From the sequence record OP617741.1: a DNA stretch of 64,000 bases; one strand, given 5' to 3'. A model generated the notes under the pieces. It ran no database searches and was not told the origin of the DNA. It was given only the letters and a program-made list of their open reading frames with translations. A program made the position numbers and the translations under genes. How positions within the stretch are numbered: position 1 is the stretch's first letter; every line of letters starts with the position of its first letter. Of the stretch, positions 46,738 to 63,111 are shown piece by piece. This DNA comes from Klebsiella phage KP13-16.

Positions 46738-46759
46738 GAAGCCAGCATTAACTGGCTTA
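46738..46759 (-). terminator. hairpin attenuator (AGCCAG-cattaa-CTGGCT) upstream of nrdD
   Basis: 6-bp stem. On the transcript it is followed by a U-rich tract and then the nrdD RBS. Confidence 0.35.
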
Positions 46760-46805: not shown

Positions 46806-47234
46806 TTAAATCAGATAAGTTTGAAGAATAGTCTTTGCTAATTGATTATCTACTGTTTTGCCAGCAGCTTTAGCAACCATGTTAATTTTACCCATGAAAC
46901 TCATAGTGATTTTATCACCATTCTGTACCGCAGTATCCAAGAAATCACGAATCTCTTCTTCACTCAACTGTGCAGGAAGATAACTTTCCATAAAAGCAAT
47001 TTCTTCTTCATACTGTTTCAGTTGTGCTTCATGACCTTCAAGACTTGCACGAGTAGATTTTACAGTAGACTTAATCAAGGCAATAGCATCTTCATCAGTT
47101 GAATTTTTATCTTGTGACAATTTTCCTAAAAGAAAGGTTAGAGTAGCAACCTTTTCTTTATCACCGGATTTACGAAAAGCAAGTTGGTCTTGTTTCATTT
47201 TCTCAATAATCATTAATATTCTCCTATTCCACAA
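46806..47234 (-). CDS. hypothetical protein
   Basis: 142 aa, helical. Confidence 0.45.
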   Translation of the reverse strand: MWNRRILMIIEKMKQDQLAFRKSGDKEKVATLTFLLGKLSQDKNSTDEDAIALIKSTVKSTRASLEGHEAQLKQYEEEIAFMESYLPAQLSEEEIRDFLDTAVQNGDKITMSFMGKINMVAKAAGKTVDNQLAKTILQTYLI

Positions 47235-47845
47235 TAAAGAGTTTCTCTTGTATTATTTAAATCTTCAGAAACTCTATTAATTTCTTTTTGTAAGATATCC
47301 TTATACTGAGGATATTTTTCTATCAAAGTTAAACCTTGATTTATATACAACATTTGCCAAGCTCTATGTGCTTCAACAGGATCTGTGAAACCATGTATGG
47401 CAATATCATGAAACCTAGCCCTATATCGAGGTACTTTCTGATATTTATTTTTCTGTTCAGAAACTCCCAATGGTAAATTATTTTTAGAGTATCTTTTTAT
47501 AATATAATTATTTAAATCTTTACCTACAAAACCACAGGTGCTTGGAGAGTATATTTTACTAACCCCAGATAAGAGATCCTTGTCCAGTTCCTTTCCTTCC
47601 CAATCTTGGGTTTCCATCCAGGCACGAAAATTACCAAATGTCAACCATTCTTCACAAACACTACAACCTTTATAAGTAGGAAATCTTCTTTGGTAATTTT
47701 CACTATAACAACGCCTTAGCATATTCGTCCAACGATCATAATATGGATCTCGCCAAAATACAACTTCTTTACCATTCATACGTTTACTTTTTTGAGTTAT
47801 ATCTTCTAGATCATTGTATCCCTTACCAAAAAGTAATTTATTCAT
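47213..47845 (-). CDS. AP2-domain / homing-endonuclease-like protein (paralog A)
   Basis: The N-terminal motif is WTNMLRRCY...YKGCSVCEEW. The C-terminus is AP2-like (RYRARF...HGFTDPVEAHRAW). Paralogous to 52239..52901. Confidence 0.45.
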   Translation of the reverse strand: MNKLLFGKGYNDLEDITQKSKRMNGKEVVFWRDPYYDRWTNMLRRCYSENYQRRFPTYKGCSVCEEWLTFGNFRAWMETQDWEGKELDKDLLSGVSKIYSPSTCGFVGKDLNNYIIKRYSKNNLPLGVSEQKNKYQKVPRYRARFHDIAIHGFTDPVEAHRAWQMLYINQGLTLIEKYPQYKDILQKEINRVSEDLNNTRETLYCGIGEY

Positions 47846-49134
47846 TACAATTCTATCTCAAGTAAGTAATCAAGTCTAACTTGACTCAGGTCAAAGACTA
47901 CAATCTCATCATTTCTCACCCCAGAGTATCCAGCCTTAGCCCAATAAGATTGGTATCCTTTTGGAGGGCGTTGACTTGTTGGTCCTGTTGGGGTATAAGC
48001 ATTTCCAACAGCCACTGAAACTAGAAACATGTAAACTTTTCCATTCCCCTGACCACCACCCGTATAATACATGTTATCACAATATTGGAGACTTTTTGAA
48101 GATTGATTTGCGAAATACAATCCTGTTGAGAACATGGCCCCTGCCTTAACACCAGGACTATCTTTAGGCATCATTAACCCTTTACAGAAAATAGATAACA
48201 AATTAGCTACACGTGTTCCGTGCCACAGTTCATGAACATTACCATACTCTGTGATAGCTTTATCAAATGGTGCTTGCTGATTTCCAAGATTAATTTTATA
48301 GATATTCTTAACTTTAGAACCCATGATGCGACCGCCGTGTTGGGCATTTTTACTTTCATTGTAGTAATTAACAATACGATCAATTGTAGCAGAATCTTCA
48401 ACATGAGAGATACCAAAATTAAAGATTTTTTCTACTTCAACTTCTTCTTTAGGTTTATCTTCCTGATTCTTTTTAAGTTCTTCAATAAGGTCTAATGTTT
48501 CCAGAAGTGCTTTACAGATTTCACGTTGTTCGTCAATGTTTTTGTGACTAAACAGCAAGTGACGTTTATCACGTGTAGTTGCAACTTTATTAGGAATAAG
48601 AACAAAATAAGAATCATTTAAAGTTAAGATCTCATCTTCACCTTTACCACTCTTTTCATATTCATCCAAAAGGGATTCAATATTACCAAGATGGATCATT
48701 GCTTCTTCCACAGCAGCTTTCTTTACAACTCCTAAAGGAGTCTTAAACAGACCATCTTTTTCATCATATTTAATGTTAGTAGAACTGGTGATATTATGGA
48801 TGTTTGCTTTAGCAATTGCTTGAATAAGATTACGACTTGTGTCGTCTTTACAATCAATTTGCTTAAGTGCAATGTCTACTACGTTAACTTTTTGAGTCAA
48901 CCCAGTTTCACCAGAGACAGCTTCTAGTTGTGCTTCTTTATAACCTTTCTTGATTTTAGATGCAACAAGACTGTCAAACTTCTTTTTACCACCAGAGTAG
49001 GAGGTAGTTTGAACCCCGCCACCTACCCGACCAAAACGAACTGCAATATTTCCAACGTCATCTAAGGTTGCTTCATAGAATTTATTGTTATTATTCTTTG
49101 AATCAAACATGATTAGCATTTTACTCTCAGACAT
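47845..49134 (-). CDS. WGR-domain poly(ADP-ribose) polymerase (PARP) catalytic homolog
   Basis: N-terminal WGR-like domain (YEATLDDVGNIAVRFGRVGGG...KGYKE). The C-terminus carries LWHGT and GAMFSTGLYFA. It continues through FLVSVAVGN to RNDEIVVFDLSQVRLDYLLEI. Together these give the PARP H-G-S/T, Y and E motifs (H-Y-E triad). Confidence 0.85.
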   Translation of the reverse strand: MSESKMLIMFDSKNNNNKFYEATLDDVGNIAVRFGRVGGGVQTTSYSGGKKKFDSLVASKIKKGYKEAQLEAVSGETGLTQKVNVVDIALKQIDCKDDTSRNLIQAIAKANIHNITSSTNIKYDEKDGLFKTPLGVVKKAAVEEAMIHLGNIESLLDEYEKSGKGEDEILTLNDSYFVLIPNKVATTRDKRHLLFSHKNIDEQREICKALLETLDLIEELKKNQEDKPKEEVEVEKIFNFGISHVEDSATIDRIVNYYNESKNAQHGGRIMGSKVKNIYKINLGNQQAPFDKAITEYGNVHELWHGTRVANLLSIFCKGLMMPKDSPGVKAGAMFSTGLYFANQSSKSLQYCDNMYYTGGGQGNGKVYMFLVSVAVGNAYTPTGPTSQRPPKGYQSYWAKAGYSGVRNDEIVVFDLSQVRLDYLLEIEL

Positions 49135-50008: not shown

Positions 50009-50656
50009 TTAAAAGGTCTGATTTAGCTCCGTTAGAGTCATAACAGAACCTTCTTGAGTCAGAATAAACTCATTGTCTCCAACAGAGTCAAGAGTATAAC
50101 TTCCTTTTGGTGTTTTTACAAGGAAAGAATCCACATTTACAGTAGTGAAACCAAAAGAATTTTCCTCAAAATATCCATTTTTAACCTCTGGAGTCAAACC
50201 AATGCAGATAGCATCACCTTTAACACATAAAGCTTTTACATTTTTAATGGTATATTTTTCACCTGTTGAATAGTAAACGGTAATGTCAGTTTTCTTACGA
50301 ACTGGGACTGGTTTACGCTTCTTGTGAAAACGTGGTTTTGCTACTTTAATTTCTTTATTCATTTCTTCTCCTAAAAGTGCATTAACAAATTCTTCTGGTT
50401 TAACATAATAGTATTCATTATTAGACATGGCATCTAAGTGCCATCCGGTGAGTGTAGTCCCGGCATTATGACTTACAAGACACCATATATCTTTTTCATC
50501 ATAACTATTGAAATTATTGAAAAATCTAATAAAATCTTTATAACTCCAGTCTTCTGAAACATCAAGAGAAAGAAATATTTTTCCTAAAATACTACGATAA
50601 TTATCTTCACCATAAAATTTAACAAATTCATTTTTTAAAACATAGCCTTTATACAT
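50009..50656 (-). CDS. hypothetical protein
   Basis: 215 aa. Confidence 0.45.
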   Translation of the reverse strand: MYKGYVLKNEFVKFYGEDNYRSILGKIFLSLDVSEDWSYKDFIRFFNNFNSYDEKDIWCLVSHNAGTTLTGWHLDAMSNNEYYYVKPEEFVNALLGEEMNKEIKVAKPRFHKKRKPVPVRKKTDITVYYSTGEKYTIKNVKALCVKGDAICIGLTPEVKNGYFEENSFGFTTVNVDSFLVKTPKGSYTLDSVGDNEFILTQEGSVMTLTELNQTF

Positions 50657-50775
50657 ATTCTATTTACCTATACGATCAATTAAAGTTAAGTCCAATACCA
50701 CCGGAAGGAATAACAACCATCCAGGATAATCTTCTTGAAATAAGTGTCTTAAGACAATATAACTAATTACTGTAA

Positions 50776-51705
50776 TCACTTCTTATCTCCACTTTTACTT
50801 TTCATAATAGAGCTTAAAGATACAAGCGGGGTTTTGGGTACAGGTTTCTTTCTAGGGACATAATTTTTGACAAATGGATTAAGATTTTTAGCAATCTCTG
50901 GGATGGACATTCCTAAGAGTTTGCTTGCTTCTACCATTTTTGATCCCACCTCTTTTCCTACAATTACCATGTTATCTTTAGTATAACCTTGGGTTTGGTC
51001 TAACAGGATAAAGACTTTTTGAGACAGTTCAATTGTCTCTCCTGTTAATTTGCACTTAGTTCCTGAAAACTTAGCTTTAAACTCTGCAAAACTAACTGTA
51101 AACTCTTTCTTTTCCGCAGAGGCATGTTTAGCCATATCAGAATAGTAAGAGGCAATGCGTACATCTGGGGCAATCTGTTTATCTGACATCTTCAGGACTC
51201 CTTGATCATTACGGGATAGTTCAATTTTTTGTGTTAAGACACCATTCAAGTTATCATAAAAATTTGTATAGTCAATATCTTTAAAATAATTTTTATAAAC
51301 ATTAGATTCAAATTTAATTAAATGGTTGTATTTATAAGATAAAAACTTTTTATACCCTGGTGTAACTTTCTCTTGAACCACTCTCAAGATTGCTTCAGAT
51401 GTTTCATTGATCCTTACTACTTGTACTTCGGTTTTGTCAAGAGCATAATCTTTTATTCTATTTACTGCTGCTGAAGTTAAACAAACATTCCCTCGTTCAT
51501 AACCGAGTTTATCATCTAAACGTTCAATGGATATCTTATGTTTATCCTCATCAAAGGTAACACCAGTATAATCACACTTACCGTCATTCCGTAAGAAAAG
51601 TACTTTCATATCTTCAAGGGTTAATTTGAAATCAATACCACGCTTCCTGGCATCTTTTTTCTTAGATTCAAAACGTTTTTTGAGTTCTTGTTCGTCTAAC
51701 TTCAT
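50776..51705 (-). CDS. tandem HNH-like (His-Me finger-like) domain protein, possible homing endonuclease
   Basis: Two repeats of C..TG......I...LD...GY...N pattern (CDYTGVTF...SIERLDDKLGYERGNV; CKLTGETI...ILLDQTQGYTKDNMVIV). The catalytic His is not evident. Confidence 0.3.
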   Translation of the reverse strand: MKLDEQELKKRFESKKKDARKRGIDFKLTLEDMKVLFLRNDGKCDYTGVTFDEDKHKISIERLDDKLGYERGNVCLTSAAVNRIKDYALDKTEVQVVRINETSEAILRVVQEKVTPGYKKFLSYKYNHLIKFESNVYKNYFKDIDYTNFYDNLNGVLTQKIELSRNDQGVLKMSDKQIAPDVRIASYYSDMAKHASAEKKEFTVSFAEFKAKFSGTKCKLTGETIELSQKVFILLDQTQGYTKDNMVIVGKEVGSKMVEASKLLGMSIPEIAKNLNPFVKNYVPRKKPVPKTPLVSLSSIMKSKSGDKK

Positions 51706-51714
51706 ATAGACCTC

Positions 51715-52230
51715 TTATTTGATCACAGTGGCATTTTCAGGGATTTCAGCTTCATCAAGTACATAGATGGTAACATTGTACCCGGCTTCACACAATGTCT
51801 TTTTGATAATATCTTCAACAGAAGACCACTCTGCTCCTCCAAGACCTGCACCAAGTTTGGGAAGTCCAATTTTAAGATCCTGATTTTCAAAAAGCATTAG
51901 CTGTTTAGACATAGCTTTGAAAGAAGATTCAAGCTTATCTAAATCTGTATTTGGTTTTCCATCCTCACGTTTCCACCAACCCCACCGTCCGTATAAATTA
52001 TAAATACTTAAATTATACAATGGAGAATGGGCATATGAGAAATCTCCAAATTTTTTAGGGTCTCCTTTAATAGTTGAATCATCTGCAATAGCGACTTCCG
52101 GGAAAGCTTTATCTAAAAGTGGGGCAATCCCACGTTTACGTGCATTAAAACAGTTACATTGTTGTGCAATAACATTTACTTCTCCACTTTTTGCAGCCAA
52201 TAACAAATCCATCACTTTATATTTCAACAT
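51715..52230 (-). CDS. macro domain protein (ADP-ribose binding/hydrolase)
   Basis: VNVIAQQCNCFNARKRGIAPLL corresponds to the macro VNAAN...GGGV motif. LKIGLPKLGAGLGGAEW corresponds to the second macro motif hhFPxIGxGxxG. 171 aa. Confidence 0.65.
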   Translation of the reverse strand: MLKYKVMDLLLAAKSGEVNVIAQQCNCFNARKRGIAPLLDKAFPEVAIADDSTIKGDPKKFGDFSYAHSPLYNLSIYNLYGRWGWWKREDGKPNTDLDKLESSFKAMSKQLMLFENQDLKIGLPKLGAGLGGAEWSSVEDIIKKTLCEAGYNVTIYVLDEAEIPENATVIK

Positions 52231-52238
52231 ATTACCCC

Positions 52239-52901
52239 CTATAATTTTAATGTCTCTCTATTTAAACTTATATCTTCTTTTATATCTTGGATCCTATCAA
52301 GTAAGGCAGTTTCAACAACCTTATTAAAGTGTGCAGATTCTTTATATTTTTGTAAGCTTTCCTTGATTGCAATAATTTTATAATCTTGCCACTGTTTATG
52401 AGCAAGGTCTGGTGAGTTATGATAACCTAGATAAACAATCTTACCAGATACATGACAATAAGCTTGGAACCTATCCCTATGATGAGGCTTTTTCTTCTTT
52501 TTAAGACTTACCCCTAGTGGGAGGTGTCCTCTTGCAGATCTACTATCTGTTAATAGGCAGTTAATATAGTTCGGAACCATAACGCAAGTCTCTTTACTAT
52601 AAAGCTTATTACCTTTAATTAATATATCCTTATCAATGCATAAATTATCAAAATCCTTAGATATGGCCCAAGCTTTAAAATTTGAAAAGTATTTCCACTC
52701 TTCACTTACAGTACAACCTTCATAGACAAAATAATATGGATCTTTTTGTTTTAAATTATAACATCTTCTAAGAATGTCTTTCCATCGGCTATATATCGGA
52801 CAGAGCCAAATTTGCTTCCATTTACCATCTTCAAATCTATTTATAGAGACAGGGTCTACACTATCATTAATGCCATAGTTATGTACAAGTTTTTGTTTCA
52901 A
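52239..52901 (-). CDS. AP2-domain / homing-endonuclease-like protein (paralog B)
   Basis: WKDILRRCY...YEGCTVSEEW, with a C-terminal AP2-like segment (HRDRFQAY...LGYHNSPDLAHKQW). Paralogous to 47213..47845. Confidence 0.45.
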   Translation of the reverse strand: MKQKLVHNYGINDSVDPVSINRFEDGKWKQIWLCPIYSRWKDILRRCYNLKQKDPYYFVYEGCTVSEEWKYFSNFKAWAISKDFDNLCIDKDILIKGNKLYSKETCVMVPNYINCLLTDSRSARGHLPLGVSLKKKKKPHHRDRFQAYCHVSGKIVYLGYHNSPDLAHKQWQDYKIIAIKESLQKYKESAHFNKVVETALLDRIQDIKEDISLNRETLKL

Positions 52902-52915
52902 TCAAATCTCCAACT

Positions 52916-53299
52916 TTATAGACTAACTTGTTCTGCATCCTTCATCTCCATAAGTTTATCTAAATAATCTTTTGCCATCTTCTTATAATCTTCCGGGAAG
53001 TATTCACGATAGTAGTCTTCAAGAAGCATCATGATGCTTGGCTCTGGTCCACTTTCAATACTTGCACATTGCGGGCGCAAGTCGAAGAAATTCTTTTCTT
53101 TCTGTAACTTTGCTTCTTCGATTAACTTATCAACTTCTTTAATTTCAAGTTTAATCTTATGACAAGTTTTACTGAAATAACTTTGATCCATCTTTTTCCT
53201 GTTCACCGAACATTTTCGAAAGGAATGCAAATCTCTGATAAGTTCATTTCTAAAATTATTCAAAGCTATAACTAGTTTTTTGTTTTTATTCATTACCAA
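52916..53299 (-). CDS. hypothetical protein (family X copy 1)
   Basis: FRNELIRDLHSFRKCSVNRKKMDQSYFSKTCHKIKLEIKEVDKLI is paralogous to 55683..55958. Confidence 0.45.
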   Translation of the reverse strand: MVMNKNKKLVIALNNFRNELIRDLHSFRKCSVNRKKMDQSYFSKTCHKIKLEIKEVDKLIEEAKLQKEKNFFDLRPQCASIESGPEPSIMMLLEDYYREYFPEDYKKMAKDYLDKLMEMKDAEQVSL

Positions 53300-53532
53300 G
53301 GTGCCTCTTCTAATTGGGAATGGGAGATGCCCATCATATCTGCCAGATCGTCTTTTGTCAACAATTTTCTTTCAAACAAATTTGTAACCAGCAAAACAAA
53401 CATCTCACCTACGTTATTATTAGATTGCTCTAATAGTAACTGCTCAAGGTTAAAAGTTTTAGTATCACTATAATCCTCATTCGTAAGGAAGAAATGCTTT
53501 TGTTGTGGGTTTAGCATAGGTCTTTTCCTCAA
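53293..53532 (-). CDS. hypothetical protein
   Basis: 79 aa; it overlaps neighbouring genes. Confidence 0.3.
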   Translation of the reverse strand: MRKRPMLNPQQKHFFLTNEDYSDTKTFNLEQLLLEQSNNNVGEMFVLLVTNLFERKLLTKDDLADMMGISHSQLEEAPW

Positions 53533-53758
53533 ATCTCAGTTCGCCGTTAAGTTTTTCAATTCTATGTGGGAGAACATCCTGGCCCCACCAAGGCTTTTCA
53601 TGAATACGATAACTCCAGACTGTCATGAAAGAGTCTTCTTCAGTGCCTTCTCCTTTGATTCTAACAGTCTTATTATAGATATCCCGGATAGTAGCTTCTA
53701 TCCCATCTACTAAGACAATCTCATGAATTCTGTAAGGCATCTGGTATTCATTAGTCAC
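53477..53758 (-). CDS. hypothetical protein
   Basis: GTG start at 53758 with GGAG 7 nt upstream. It overlaps the NadR stop as GTGA (translational coupling). The listed longer start would overlap NadR by 58 nt. Confidence 0.35.
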   Translation of the reverse strand: MTNEYQMPYRIHEIVLVDGIEATIRDIYNKTVRIKGEGTEEDSFMTVWSYRIHEKPWWGQDVLPHRIEKLNGELRFEEKTYAKPTTKAFLPYE

Positions 53759-55356
53759 AAATATGCTCCAAGAATATGTTCTGAATAAACCTCTTCTAGA
53801 AAATCTTCCCAAAATTCCTTATCTACTGAAGAAGGATAATGAGAGTTTTCTGCTAAAATTTCAACTTCCTGTACAACCTTCTCAAGTTCTTCCTGAACCT
53901 CATTGAAAGGCATGTTACCAGTCTTAACAGATAAAATCAAGGGATTTTGTTCCATAGGATAAACAAGATCACCATGCTTATAAATGTTAATAAGTTGATA
54001 TCCACCACGAAGAGCGTGGCTCAGAGCTTTCCAATCCACACCTTGATTAGCCTCAGCCAAACGTGCTCTATCGCCATATTCTTCCCACAGTTTAAATAAA
54101 GACGTCTTCATTTCTTTTACTGAGACTGTTTGTTGAAACTTTCTTCCAAGAACTTCATAAAAGATTTGATTTACACCATTTTTATCCGTAGCAAAGATCC
54201 AATATGCAAACTCATTGAGTGGAAAATATTCTTTGAAATCACCAACCTTTTTAGAATCATCTATTGTTTTAATACATTCTACAACTTCACGTAATGCTGC
54301 AAGCCTGGAGCCTTTAATTCCATACTTAGATGCTTGTTTCCTTACATAACCAAAAAGCCCTGTCAGCTTTTTAGTATAAAAACGGTGACGATTGTCACGA
54401 ATATATTGCCACGTTTCAGAATTGGTTACGAGCTTACTATCTGTATCTTGCAAACGGAGAGGATCAGCCACCCACTCAACTTCTGGGGAAAGGTATAGCA
54501 CCATGTCGTAGAAGTTATGAGCTTCTTCAACAGCCAACGACATAAACATACCATCATTGTAGCTCACTTTACCAGCACAAATTGCAGAAAAATGTGTTAT
54601 AAGATTGGTTGTATCTGAAATATGCACCACATGTGCCTGATTTGAGTTACTAAATTCCTCAATACGGTGGATCATAGCAATCTTAAGATATGCTTCACGA
54701 TCCATTAAAAATTCACTGCCATTGTACATCTGTTCGCAAATATGCCGCCCTACTTCGGGTGTTGATGTTGTTCCATAGTGCTGTGCTAGAAGCTCAGTCA
54801 TAGTGGATTTGCCAGTGCTCTCAACACCAATGATAGCTACACGTTTTACAAAACGAGGACGAGCTTGATCTGAAAGATACTCGAAGTTATCACGTAGATT
54901 AGTACGAATACGTGTTGCAGAGATATCCACTCCTGTACGCTCTGCATCCAACACAACATGCTCCACCTCTGGGAAATGCTCAGAGAAGTACTCAGTATAC
55001 TCCGGCTCAGAAGAGAAAGCATGTGTCAACACTTCCCCTTCTGGGATTTTAGCACGAATCAACTCAGCATAAGCCTTACCACCTTCTGGATAACCAGGAA
55101 TATCAGACTCATCCACATAATCTACAATCACTTTGTGTTGTAACCCTGAGTCTTGAATTAAAGATTTAAGATCCAATAAACGCTGGGTTAAACCTAGACG
55201 GTCTTGCATCCAAGGTGTTTGAGTGTCGTTAAACTTCTGGTCAAACGACAGAAACAGGTATAGCCGATCAATACCTGAATCTACAGCCATACGAATGAAG
55301 TTGACGTGTCCTGCTGTCAGGGGTGCAAATTTACCTAAAATTAAGCCTACGTTCAT
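53755..55356 (-). CDS. NadR-like bifunctional NMN adenylyltransferase / ribosylnicotinamide kinase
   Basis: The N-terminal GKFAPLTAGH matches the GxFxPxHxGH NMNAT motif. The central Walker A segment IIGVESTGKST resembles the NadR RNK domain (GGESSGKS). 533 aa. RBS AAGGAG. Confidence 0.75.
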   Translation of the reverse strand: MNVGLILGKFAPLTAGHVNFIRMAVDSGIDRLYLFLSFDQKFNDTQTPWMQDRLGLTQRLLDLKSLIQDSGLQHKVIVDYVDESDIPGYPEGGKAYAELIRAKIPEGEVLTHAFSSEPEYTEYFSEHFPEVEHVVLDAERTGVDISATRIRTNLRDNFEYLSDQARPRFVKRVAIIGVESTGKSTMTELLAQHYGTTSTPEVGRHICEQMYNGSEFLMDREAYLKIAMIHRIEEFSNSNQAHVVHISDTTNLITHFSAICAGKVSYNDGMFMSLAVEEAHNFYDMVLYLSPEVEWVADPLRLQDTDSKLVTNSETWQYIRDNRHRFYTKKLTGLFGYVRKQASKYGIKGSRLAALREVVECIKTIDDSKKVGDFKEYFPLNEFAYWIFATDKNGVNQIFYEVLGRKFQQTVSVKEMKTSLFKLWEEYGDRARLAEANQGVDWKALSHALRGGYQLINIYKHGDLVYPMEQNPLILSVKTGNMPFNEVQEELEKVVQEVEILAENSHYPSSVDKEFWEDFLEEVYSEHILGAYL

Positions 55357-61758: not shown

Positions 61759-63111
61759 ATGAGTAAAGAATTTGTTATTGAGACTGTATTAAATACATTT
61801 AAATATGAAAAAGCTCTTTTCAAAGAGTGTAATATGATGATTGCAGGCGGTGTTTTTACTTCCCTTTTTACCAAGAAAGAAGTAAATGATGTTGATTGCT
61901 ATTTTCGATCTAAAGCTGATCTTGTTCGCTTTCTGAATTATATTTCTGAGTACGGCGATAATCGTTTTTGTATCTCTATTACTGATAAATCTGTGACGTT
62001 GGTTGGTGGAAGTGTACCAATTCAATTGATCTATTTTAAGTATTTTGAAGATCTTCAAGATGTTTTCAACACTTTTGACTTCACAATCTCAATGTGTGGA
62101 TATGATTTCAAAACTGAAAAACTAGAATATCATCCTGATTTCTTTAGTGATTTATCACAACGCCGTCTGAGTTTTAATAAAAATACAGCATATCCTTTGG
62201 TTAGTGCTTTACGTGTAAATAAATTTAAAGATCGTGGGTATCAGATTTCTCGTAGTGAAATGATTAAGCTTCTTTTAACTGTTTCACAGCTTGAAATTAA
62301 AACACCCCGCCAGTTTATTGAGCAGATTGGTGGTTTCTATGGCAACAGTGCTTTGGCTGCGCTTTCCAAACTGGATGATAAAGATTTTGATCTTGAAAAA
62401 GGTCTGAAGGTCTTGCATGAATCTTCTGAAGGAAGTAACCCAGAAATCAATAAAGTTATTTCTAAACCTAACGAATCTAAGCTTGCTGTTCATCAACTTG
62501 CTCGCTTGATTGATTCAGATAATCCATTAGAGGGTGGTTGGTATCGAGAAGATAATGTGGCCTATTATAAATCTAAATATGGTCGTCATAGTATTCCTTT
62601 GGATATTGCTTTGCTGTTTGCACCTCAAAATGAAGTCTTTGAAAATGTAAACCCAGAAGAGCCTACTAGTGGAATGTTTTATAAATGGGTGCATAAAACA
62701 GAGAATCCAAATATCTTTAAATCTATTCACCGAGATTCTTTCTTATACGAACTGGGTAAAGATGCCGTAGATGAGCAATCTGGCTTATTCTTCTGCAAGG
62801 ATACAGATATTAAAGACCACTACTTTGCAAATCGTGAAGGCGTTGTTATGTTGATGTGTCTTGCAGAAATTAAAGATCGAACGGCTCACAGATCTAATGA
62901 ACTTCGTTTCACTAAGGTTAAAGTTCTGAGTGTTGTTAATGAGCCTTATGTCAAATCTCCTGACCTGTCTACTGTAGATATTAGTAGTAAATTTAATATC
63001 AAAGTCTCAGAGAATCATTGTCGAAATGAAGAACTGGATTTGGAAGATTTGCCTGAAGAAAATGAAGGGAGTACTGTTGAACCCCTCAGTGTAACCGGAC
63101 CAGTGTTTTGA
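61759..63111 (+). CDS. Pol-beta-superfamily nucleotidyltransferase-like protein
   Basis: AGGVFTSLFTKKEVNDVDCYF fits the G[GS]-x12-DxD pattern, with a downstream acidic residue (FDFTISM). 450 aa. Confidence 0.35.
   Translation: MSKEFVIETVLNTFKYEKALFKECNMMIAGGVFTSLFTKKEVNDVDCYFRSKADLVRFLNYISEYGDNRFCISITDKSVTLVGGSVPIQLIYFKYFEDLQDVFNTFDFTISMCGYDFKTEKLEYHPDFFSDLSQRRLSFNKNTAYPLVSALRVNKFKDRGYQISRSEMIKLLLTVSQLEIKTPRQFIEQIGGFYGNSALAALSKLDDKDFDLEKGLKVLHESSEGSNPEINKVISKPNESKLAVHQLARLIDSDNPLEGGWYREDNVAYYKSKYGRHSIPLDIALLFAPQNEVFENVNPEEPTSGMFYKWVHKTENPNIFKSIHRDSFLYELGKDAVDEQSGLFFCKDTDIKDHYFANREGVVMLMCLAEIKDRTAHRSNELRFTKVKVLSVVNEPYVKSPDLSTVDISSKFNIKVSENHCRNEELDLEDLPEENEGSTVEPLSVTGPVF

Follow-up and report, generated by a model that had tools for sequence, protein, structure and literature searches.

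What does a small macrodomain protein do for a phage whose lineage also encodes a poly(ADP-ribose) polymerase (PARP) and several genes of nicotinamide adenine dinucleotide (NAD+) metabolism? The question is raised by a 171-aa coding sequence (CDS) of Klebsiella phage KP13-16, a component of a K. pneumoniae therapy cocktail (PMC10241881), and was addressed computationally using a stretch of 64,000 nt of its DNA (OP617741.1; hereafter, the window). The product of the gene (Table 1) is an exact match to UYL04440.1. The window shows 98% identity to Klebsiella phage vB_KpM_FBKp34 (MW394390, Stephanstirmvirinae), in which the counterpart of the macrodomain gene is gp105, labelled "putative phosphatase". 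The gene is in itself ordinary, being a member of a common and recently characterised phage family; what is unusual is an arginine at residue 82 of the KP13-16 protein, and a putative early gene cluster shared with a rare phage PARP.

Fold, class and family of the protein

An earlier reading of this DNA (the original prediction) had proposed a macrodomain and candidate ADP-ribose hydrolase, and this is borne out by fold, profile and family evidence. The Pfam search that had been put forward as a check was sub-threshold, the Macro model (PF01661) returning E = 0.026 and 14.9 bits, short of its gathering threshold (22); precomputed PF01661 matches exist for some homologues, and the Pfam result was not relied upon alone. 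The protein matches PHROG 335 ("phosphatase") with E = 1.1e-42. Compared with solved macrodomains, the single sequence gave E-values of 1e-6 for Bt_1257 of Bacteroides thetaiotaomicron, 2e-4 for SCO6735 of Streptomyces coelicolor, 3e-3 for Thermus DarG and 0.015 for human TARG1, and the family profile gave 3e-22 (Bt_1257), 9e-18 (SCO6735), 7e-14 (TARG1), 2e-9 (DarG) and 2e-8 (yeast Poa1p). An AlphaFold2 model built from a 70-sequence family alignment reached a predicted local distance difference test (pLDDT) score of 95.9 and a predicted template modelling (pTM) score of 0.90. Its best matches in the PDB (Foldseek) were TARG1, Bt_1257, DarG, Poa1p and SCO6735, all with probability 1.00 and target-normalised TM-scores (TMt) of 0.67–0.87; over the 50 matches listed the range was 0.65–0.87, with the top match at 0.87. 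Since the PHROG, profile, AlphaFold2 and Foldseek evidence is far beyond chance, macrodomain identity can be taken as confirmed despite the Pfam shortfall, and the modelled structure confirms the three-layer alpha/beta/alpha fold that had been anticipated. By its closest sequence and structure relatives, the protein belongs to the ALC1-like class (TARG1, DarG, SCO6735, Poa1p) and not to the MacroD or PARG classes.

The two peptide strings on which the original prediction relied are both present in the open reading frame (ORF) and correspond to the two ligand-binding loops of a macrodomain, but the motif label given to the first needs revision. Loop 1 reads N26-x7-G34, with one invariant Gly, a pattern also seen in TARG1, SCO6735 and Bt_1257, and is not the N-x6-GGGV-like segment that had been described, the MacroD-type motif being N-x6-GG[VLI]. 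Loop 2, GAGLGGAEW, is the counterpart of the loop GCGLAGGxW, which binds phosphate in Bt_1257 and SCO6735. In the 70-sequence alignment, N26 and G34 are invariant and G127 and G129 nearly so; over a larger set of 218 family sequences, N26 is retained in 217, G127 in 212 and G129 in 208. Residue 133 of the diphosphate loop is alanine where 208 of the 218 relatives have glycine, and the FBKp34 protein likewise has A133.

Homologues are numerous among phages. They were found by tblastn in 662 of 50,697 phage records, including phages of Escherichia, Pseudomonas, Vibrio and Klebsiella, and a full-library hidden Markov model (HMM) search returned 766 clusters (50% identity) at E ≤ 1e-30. Few genes for the handling of ADP-ribose are commoner in large phages than those for macrodomains and, as about 41% of myoviruses have a Macro domain (PMC9503650), the presence of one in KP13-16 is unsurprising. 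Only two phage macrodomain families have an assigned function, Adpp and AdfM, both published in 2026. By homology, the KP13-16 protein is a member of the first. It shares 37% identity over 146 aa with Adpp of Vibrio phage Gary (KNV71_gp137; E = 8e-27), and the family aligns with a homologue from Vibrio phage Morian that is 94% identical to Gary Adpp (hhalign probability 100%, E = 8e-42). Like Gary Adpp, it is a stand-alone macrodomain of PHROG 335 and of the same length class, with N26, the Gly-rich loop and the D50/Y80/W135 core and, at family level, the NxYGQ motif. Unlike it, the KP13-16 gene lies outside an Adps/Namat operon and is putatively co-transcribed with a PARP gene, and two residues differ, H24 being replaced by Gln23 and Gln82 by Arg.

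Sequence comparison thus places a small-molecule phosphatase, Gary Adpp, as the nearest experimentally characterised relative, with SCO6735 the next closest. The purified Gary enzyme converts ADP-ribose (ADPR)-1''-phosphate to ADPR (Osterman et al., January 2026 preprint, bioRxiv 10.64898/2026.01.28.702374). According to the same preprint, the three-gene Gary NARP1-AP operon (NARP1 denotes a phage NAD+ reconstitution pathway) overcomes the RES-domain defence aRES; the Adpp mutants N27A and H24A fail, with anti-aRES activity abolished (its supplementary table S4); and K. pneumoniae, E. coli and Enterobacter were the sources of the aRES systems cloned. Pakpunavirus macrodomains given as NARP1-associated in its Table S1 carry the same motifs as the KP13-16 family. 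The Morian homologue sits between Prs-like (phosphoribosyl-pyrophosphate-synthetase-like) and Nampt-like (NAPRTase-like) genes, and another homologue (P0023, 49% identical) lies directly 5' of Pribosyl_synth and NAPRTase genes; this gene arrangement is that of the NARP1-AP operon. The reaction of Adpp is also that of Poa1p, the yeast ADP-ribose 1''-phosphate phosphatase (PDB 6LFQ), which is of the same class (Foldseek E = 5e-9) but remote (16% identity), and is a eukaryotic enzyme acting on a tRNA-splicing by-product.

In T4-like Escherichia and Shigella phages (records H33-H40), hypothetical proteins match only residues 19–110 of the macrodomain, at ~35% identity, and may represent truncated or split macrodomains.

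Proposed substrate and role

From fold, family, conserved ligand-binding residues, gene context and the NARP1-like genes of the lineage, all of them observed, we infer a substrate and a physiological role. The protein would be a stand-alone macrodomain enzyme of the phage Adpp family, probably expressed early. ADP-ribose would be held between the Asn loop (residues 23–36) and the Gly-rich diphosphate loop (residues 122–135), and whatever sits on C1'' of the distal ribose would be hydrolysed. RES-domain defence proteins (aRES), which occur in Klebsiella among other hosts, deplete NAD+ by turning it into nicotinamide and ADPR-1''-phosphate, a product that NARP1 cannot use. Adpp restores ADPR (ADPR-1''-phosphate to ADPR and phosphate), from which Adps and Namat rebuild NAD+. 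The KP13-16 macrodomain would accordingly form part of a phage NAD+/ADP-ribose toolkit and act in trans with NARP1. That its function is hydrolysis at C1'', the likely reaction being ADPR-1''-phosphate to ADPR in support of a NARP1-like pathway against aRES-type NAD+ depletion, is the reading tentatively preferred here, and it may well be correct, although we stop short of calling it probable. For the subclade with Gln at position 23, to which the protein belongs, any such activity is predicted from family homology. Membership of the Adpp family leads one to expect that the phage withstands NAD+ depletion of the aRES type, a form of defence that K. pneumoniae possesses.

The toolkit proposal is based on the gene content of the lineage, which includes Adps-like, Namat-like, NadR-like, PnuC, Sir2 and PARP genes. 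As with Gary, the KP13-16/FBKp34 lineage has both Adps-like and Namat-like genes: KP13-16 encodes a Namat-like protein (UYL04348.1) and, in FBKp34, Gary Adps and Gary Namat have counterparts in gp198 (42% identity) and gp196 (37% identity), respectively. The two FBKp34 genes are found at 109.5–112.6 kb, split by an HNH gene, and the region from 109.5 to 121.4 kb (L014) also specifies a second NadR-like protein, a PnuC transporter of nicotinamide mononucleotide (NMN), a Sir2-family protein and an RNA ligase. Within the window, a NadR-like fusion gene for NAD+ synthesis is situated 1.5 kb upstream of the macrodomain gene on the same strand; its match to the nadR model TIGR01526 (1.5e-48) is below the model cut-off. 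The FBKp34 counterpart of this 533-aa ORF is split into three CDS (gp99-gp101, one of them labelled 'putative thioredoxin'), which reflects either frameshifts in FBKp34 or wrong annotation.

Several observations weigh against the proposed role. The Namat-like gp196 may be an ordinary Nampt. Neither Adps nor Namat is encoded in the annotated part of FBKp34 that matches the window, the NARP1-like genes of that phage lying ~66 kb away, and the macrodomain gene shares its putative transcription unit with the PARP gene and not with NARP1. The family profile is nearer to the DNA/protein de-ADP-ribosylases Bt_1257 and SCO6735 (3e-22, 9e-18) than to Poa1p (2e-8). At the active site, His24 of Gary Adpp, which is required for function, corresponds to Gln23 of the KP13-16 protein, and among the NARP1-adjacent macrodomains of Table S1 the sequence QQCNC or QQANC occurs in none while HQ[CA]NC occurs in 106. 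Finally, position 82 is Gln in 217 of the 218 family sequences and Arg solely in the KP13-16 protein, a point that the original prediction had overlooked; changes at the equivalent residue of SCO6735 (Q85A and Q85E) give inactive enzyme (PMC9411070).

Gln23 and Arg82

Across the family, position 23 is occupied only by His (198 sequences) or Gln (20, about 9%), so that Gln may be tolerated there; the Gln23 subclade consists of the window protein, its FBKp34 counterpart and homologues P0002-P0006. Arg82, by contrast with Gln23, is found in KP13-16 alone among the family sequences. An A-to-G change at window position 51986 is the sole nucleotide difference from FBKp34 in the 516-nt macrodomain gene, and this codon-82 single-nucleotide polymorphism (SNP) is also the only difference across 1,375 bases (51619–52993), flanked by blocks that diverge by 3–4%. 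The KP13-16 sequence of the gene is identical in the NCBI record and in the Logan assembly, both probably derived from the same reads, and Arg82 is therefore not a typographical error of the deposit alone. The equivalent residue is essential in DarG (K80A) and TARG1 (K84) as well as in SCO6735 (PMC9411070). With an otherwise invariant active-site Gln replaced, the enzyme encoded by KP13-16 may have lost its activity, have less of it or have a changed one; Arg82 might, for example, take hold of the 1''-phosphate and no longer position the ribose.

Whatever the substrate, KP13-16 could thus carry a dead or binding-only allele, in which Q82R is either a loss of function, neutral or selected (for instance as an escape from host sensing of the enzyme or its product), or else a sequencing artefact. 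This is a serious possibility, though on balance we doubt it. The uniqueness of Arg82 among the 218 sequences, the isolation of the SNP within an otherwise identical segment and the need for the equivalent residue in three characterised enzymes all speak in its favour, and there is a parallel in the anti-DarT proteins AdfA and AdfB, which also circulate as active and inactive alleles that differ by a single residue (PMC11481870). Arg, however, was not among the substitutions tested and, as a basic residue in the place where DarG and TARG1 have Lys, could preserve or change activity. The chance that one SNP in 1.4 kb falls on a conserved codon is, by a post hoc estimate, ~2% if ten invariant codons are counted and ~6% for the ~39 that are invariant or nearly so. 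The agreement of the NCBI and Logan sequences counts against an artefact to the extent that shared reads allow. Arg82 predicts that KP13-16 may have lost protection against aRES while FBKp34 keeps it, which is relevant to host range.

Divergence between the two phages over window positions 50619..54441 is strongly mosaic, with blocks showing no differences (51619–52993 apart from the one SNP, and 53283–54072) alternating with blocks of 3–4%. Such a pattern is in keeping with recombination, or with homing, around the endonuclease genes of the region.

Alternative substrates and the gene neighbourhood

An alternative substrate is DNA. The protein could remove ADP-ribose from thymidine in phage single-stranded DNA, as do SCO6735, DarG and AdfM of phage PhiKZ, and so neutralise DarTG2. 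The best solved sequence relatives, and the closest after Adpp, are SCO6735 and Bt_1257 (PDB 5E3B, 2FG1, 2AFC), which represent a Gln-type subclass of the ALC1-like macrodomains; at family level they share with the phage proteins the Gln in place of the catalytic Lys, the conserved Asn, the GCGLAGGxW loop and an extended mobile loop, which exceeds that of TARG1 and DarG by about five residues (the profile aligns to Bt_1257 without a gap and to TARG1 with a 6-residue gap). The substrates of SCO6735 are thymidine-ADPr DNA and Glu-ADPr protein, and the enzyme undoes the modification made by DarT both in vitro and inside cells (PMC9411070). A precedent among phages is AdfM (PhiKZ gp104), the first phage anti-DarT macrodomain, which is likewise a stand-alone counter-defence protein with the Asn present (PMC13309987). 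Identity to SCO6735 and Bt_1257 is nevertheless only ~23%, both are bacterial chromosomal proteins, KP13-16 has Arg82 where they have Gln, and the sole activity tested in the phage family is on a small molecule, ADPR-1''-phosphate. Basic residues (R31, K32, R33, K87, R88 and K92) are found along the two loops, but less weight was given to the RKR patch as a sign of a DNA substrate once it was seen that in Gary Adpp, too, an Arg precedes the invariant Gly, the basic patch thus not being distinctive. Overall, an anti-DarT2 role seems unlikely.

The more specific suggestion of the original prediction, that the protein is DarG-like, was not upheld at the level of family membership. It resembles the DarG macrodomain (PDB 5M31, 5M3E, 5M3I) in class, fold (Foldseek E about 2e-9) and conserved Asn, but does not have the catalytic Lys (K80 in the Taq protein; Gln in the family, Arg here). 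The 171-aa protein has no DarT-binding C-terminal domain and no adjacent darT gene, its neighbours being HNH endonuclease genes. The NCBIfam DarG model NF048014 scored 27.3 bits, against an equivalog cut-off of 250, over positions 89–153 of 338, and the PADLOC DarG model gave 3e-8 over positions 1–145 of 329. Such matches are weak, involve the macrodomain part only and do not discriminate, as the validated phosphatase Gary Adpp scores better. Nor was membership of the AdfM family upheld: PhiKZ gp104, compared directly, proved only remotely related (BLASTP E = 0.57; hhalign probability 85%, E = 6e-6), and the Lys of the N/K pair is absent.

A further alternative, that the macrodomain trims the output of the phage's own PARP, had also been raised at the outset. 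As an eraser it would strip terminal or mono-ADP-ribose placed on proteins (Glu/Asp) or DNA ends by the co-transcribed WGR-HD-PARP, the two forming a writer/eraser pair. There is some local evidence for it, though not strong. The PARP gene lies 2.6 kb downstream of the macrodomain gene and on its strand, one promoter-like and one terminator-like site bracketing the two, and alignment to human PARP1 shows its H-Y-E triad to be intact (LWHGTR / GLYFAN / NDEIVVFD). The linkage, at 2.6–5.2 kb, is kept in all six of the lineage contexts examined that were long enough (window, FBKp34, 05F01, L004, L006, L015), even though their macrodomain proteins are only 45–68% identical. TARG1 also reverses the phosphate-linked ADP-ribosylation of DNA made by PARP2 and PARP3. 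It is the top structural match (PDB 4J5Q, 4J5R, 4J5S; Foldseek E = 5e-11, TMt 0.87) and its Lys84 aligns with residue 82; the KP13-16 protein, however, is without the Lys84/Asp125 dyad, has a mobile loop six residues longer and shares ~20% identity. Both TARG1 and SCO6735 hydrolyse Glu-linked ADP-ribose on protein (PMC9411070).

The phyletic evidence goes the other way. PARP homologues occur in 16 of the 50,697 phage records (two Klebsiella phages, Xanthomonas and Stenotrophomonas jumbo phages, Cellulophaga phages, two uncultured metagenomic phages and one Bacillus phage), compared with 662 for the macrodomain family, and on these grounds dependence on PARP is ruled out as a general explanation of the family. 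In related phages (L008) the macrodomain gene is kept in a comparable early region that has no PARP gene, the jumbo phage XacN1 has no annotated macrodomain within 8 kb of its PARP and, as it comes from a single lineage, the linkage counts as one observation. An eraser role appears improbable. The conserved neighbourhood provides a tractable system for studying the function of bacterial-virus PARPs and their reversal by macrodomains. A more elaborate version, which we rate as somewhat less likely again, is that the Gln23-type macrodomain of the FBKp34/KP13-16 lineage left the NARP1 role and now erases the marks of a PARP1-3-like phage writer (WGR-HD-CAT, H-Y-E) within one early operon, Q82R being a selected trapping or inactivating switch comparable to the AdfA and AdfB alleles; if true, this would amount to a full ADP-ribosylation cycle owned by the virus, with host or phage proteins or DNA ends as its targets.

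Least likely of all is a general scavenger of soluble ADP-ribose derivatives (O-acyl-ADP-ribose from Sir2, ADPR-1''-phosphate from tRNA repair, ADPR-based immune signals) with no dedicated link to NARP1: it would suit the Sir2-family protein and RNA ligase of FBKp34, the O-acyl-ADP-ribose deacylase activity in the PDB molecule name of TARG1/OARD1, the prediction of Iyer et al. (2022) that Macro domains of phages serve chiefly against soluble derivatives of ADPr (PMC9503650) and a cREC gene (cREC_REC domain; predicted to process ADP-ribose derivatives) directly after the homologue P0006 in a metagenomic relative (L016, 9508..9858), but no Sir2, KptA or 2H gene is linked to the macrodomain gene in the window.

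The features of the region are given in Table 1. Macrodomain and PARP genes are placed in one putative early transcription unit, which would run from the promoter-like start at 53361 to the terminator-like end at 46739. Promoters were sought by consensus matching only, which gave 35 matches where 36.7 were expected from shuffles, and for this reason only the coincidence with the FBKp34 annotation was used. Early expression would fit the consensus sigma-70-like promoter upstream. A terminator-like hairpin at 52133..52119, within the macrodomain coding sequence, was taken as a chance match.

Table 1. Features of the KP13-16 macrodomain locus (positions in the window).
Feature	Position (nt)	Strand	Basis or remark
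Terminator-like hairpin and T-run, after YqeY gene	46739..46758	-	Coincides with FBKp34-annotated terminator
Phage PARP, 429 aa (WGR, PARP regulatory (HD) and catalytic domains)	47845..49134	-	Pfam
HNH endonuclease / Srd-like gene, directly downstream of macrodomain gene	50776..51705	-	phrog_3118, 2e-45; phrog_1400 (Srd), 1e-19
Macrodomain CDS, 171 aa	51715..52230	-	ORF, ATG start; Adpp / PHROG 335 family, ALC1-like class
Diphosphate-binding loop, residues 122-135, GLPKLGAGLGGAEW	51826..51867	-	Family alignment, solved macrodomains
Arg82, codon 82 (CGG)	51985..51987	-	CAG (Gln) in FBKp34; equivalents SCO6735 Gln85, DarG Lys80, TARG1 Lys84
Invariant Asn of loop 1, codon 26	52153..52155	-	Equivalents Gary Adpp N27, SCO6735 N27, DarG N22 (PMC9411070; PMC13309987)
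Gln23, codon 23	52162..52164	-	Aligns with Gary Adpp His24
Shine-Dalgarno-like run, GGGGG	52235..52239	-	4 nt 5' of macrodomain ATG; overlaps stop codon of upstream HNH gene; read from sequence
HNH homing-endonuclease-like gene, directly upstream of macrodomain gene	52239..52901	-	phrog_953, E = 1e-72
Sigma-70-like promoter match, TTGACA-17-TATGAT (11/12)	53333..53361	-	Best in region; coincides with FBKp34 promoter annotated upstream of gp103
NadR-like NMN adenylyltransferase / ribosylnicotinamide kinase fused to RlaP-type nucleotidyltransferase, 533 aa	53755..55356	-	AAA_28; phrog_3462, 1e-102; phrog_388, 3e-70

Three HNH-like genes, all on the minus strand, are interleaved with the macrodomain and PARP genes. 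Two of them flank the macrodomain gene, and the third (47213..47845) is a paralogue (phrog_953) of the upstream one. The place of the third is taken in FBKp34 by a smaller gene without annotation, gp112 (468 nt), so that this phage appears to lack the HNH gene. The best match of the product encoded directly downstream of the macrodomain gene is to an HNH endonuclease family, with an Srd-like N-terminus, and its label in FBKp34 is 'anti-sigma factor'.

Two other ORFs were noted. A 450-aa ORF (61759..63111, plus strand) is found where related contigs (L004, 2613..3998; L006, 1..344) have a protein of 450–461 aa with a precomputed Pfam match to Gad2 (anti-Gabija); a Pfam scan of the window protein returned nothing at E ≤ 0.001. 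A 215-aa ORF (50009..50656, minus strand) aligns only in part with FBKp34, which has smaller genes there, and shows a weak match to a PHROG labelled ribonucleotide reductase.

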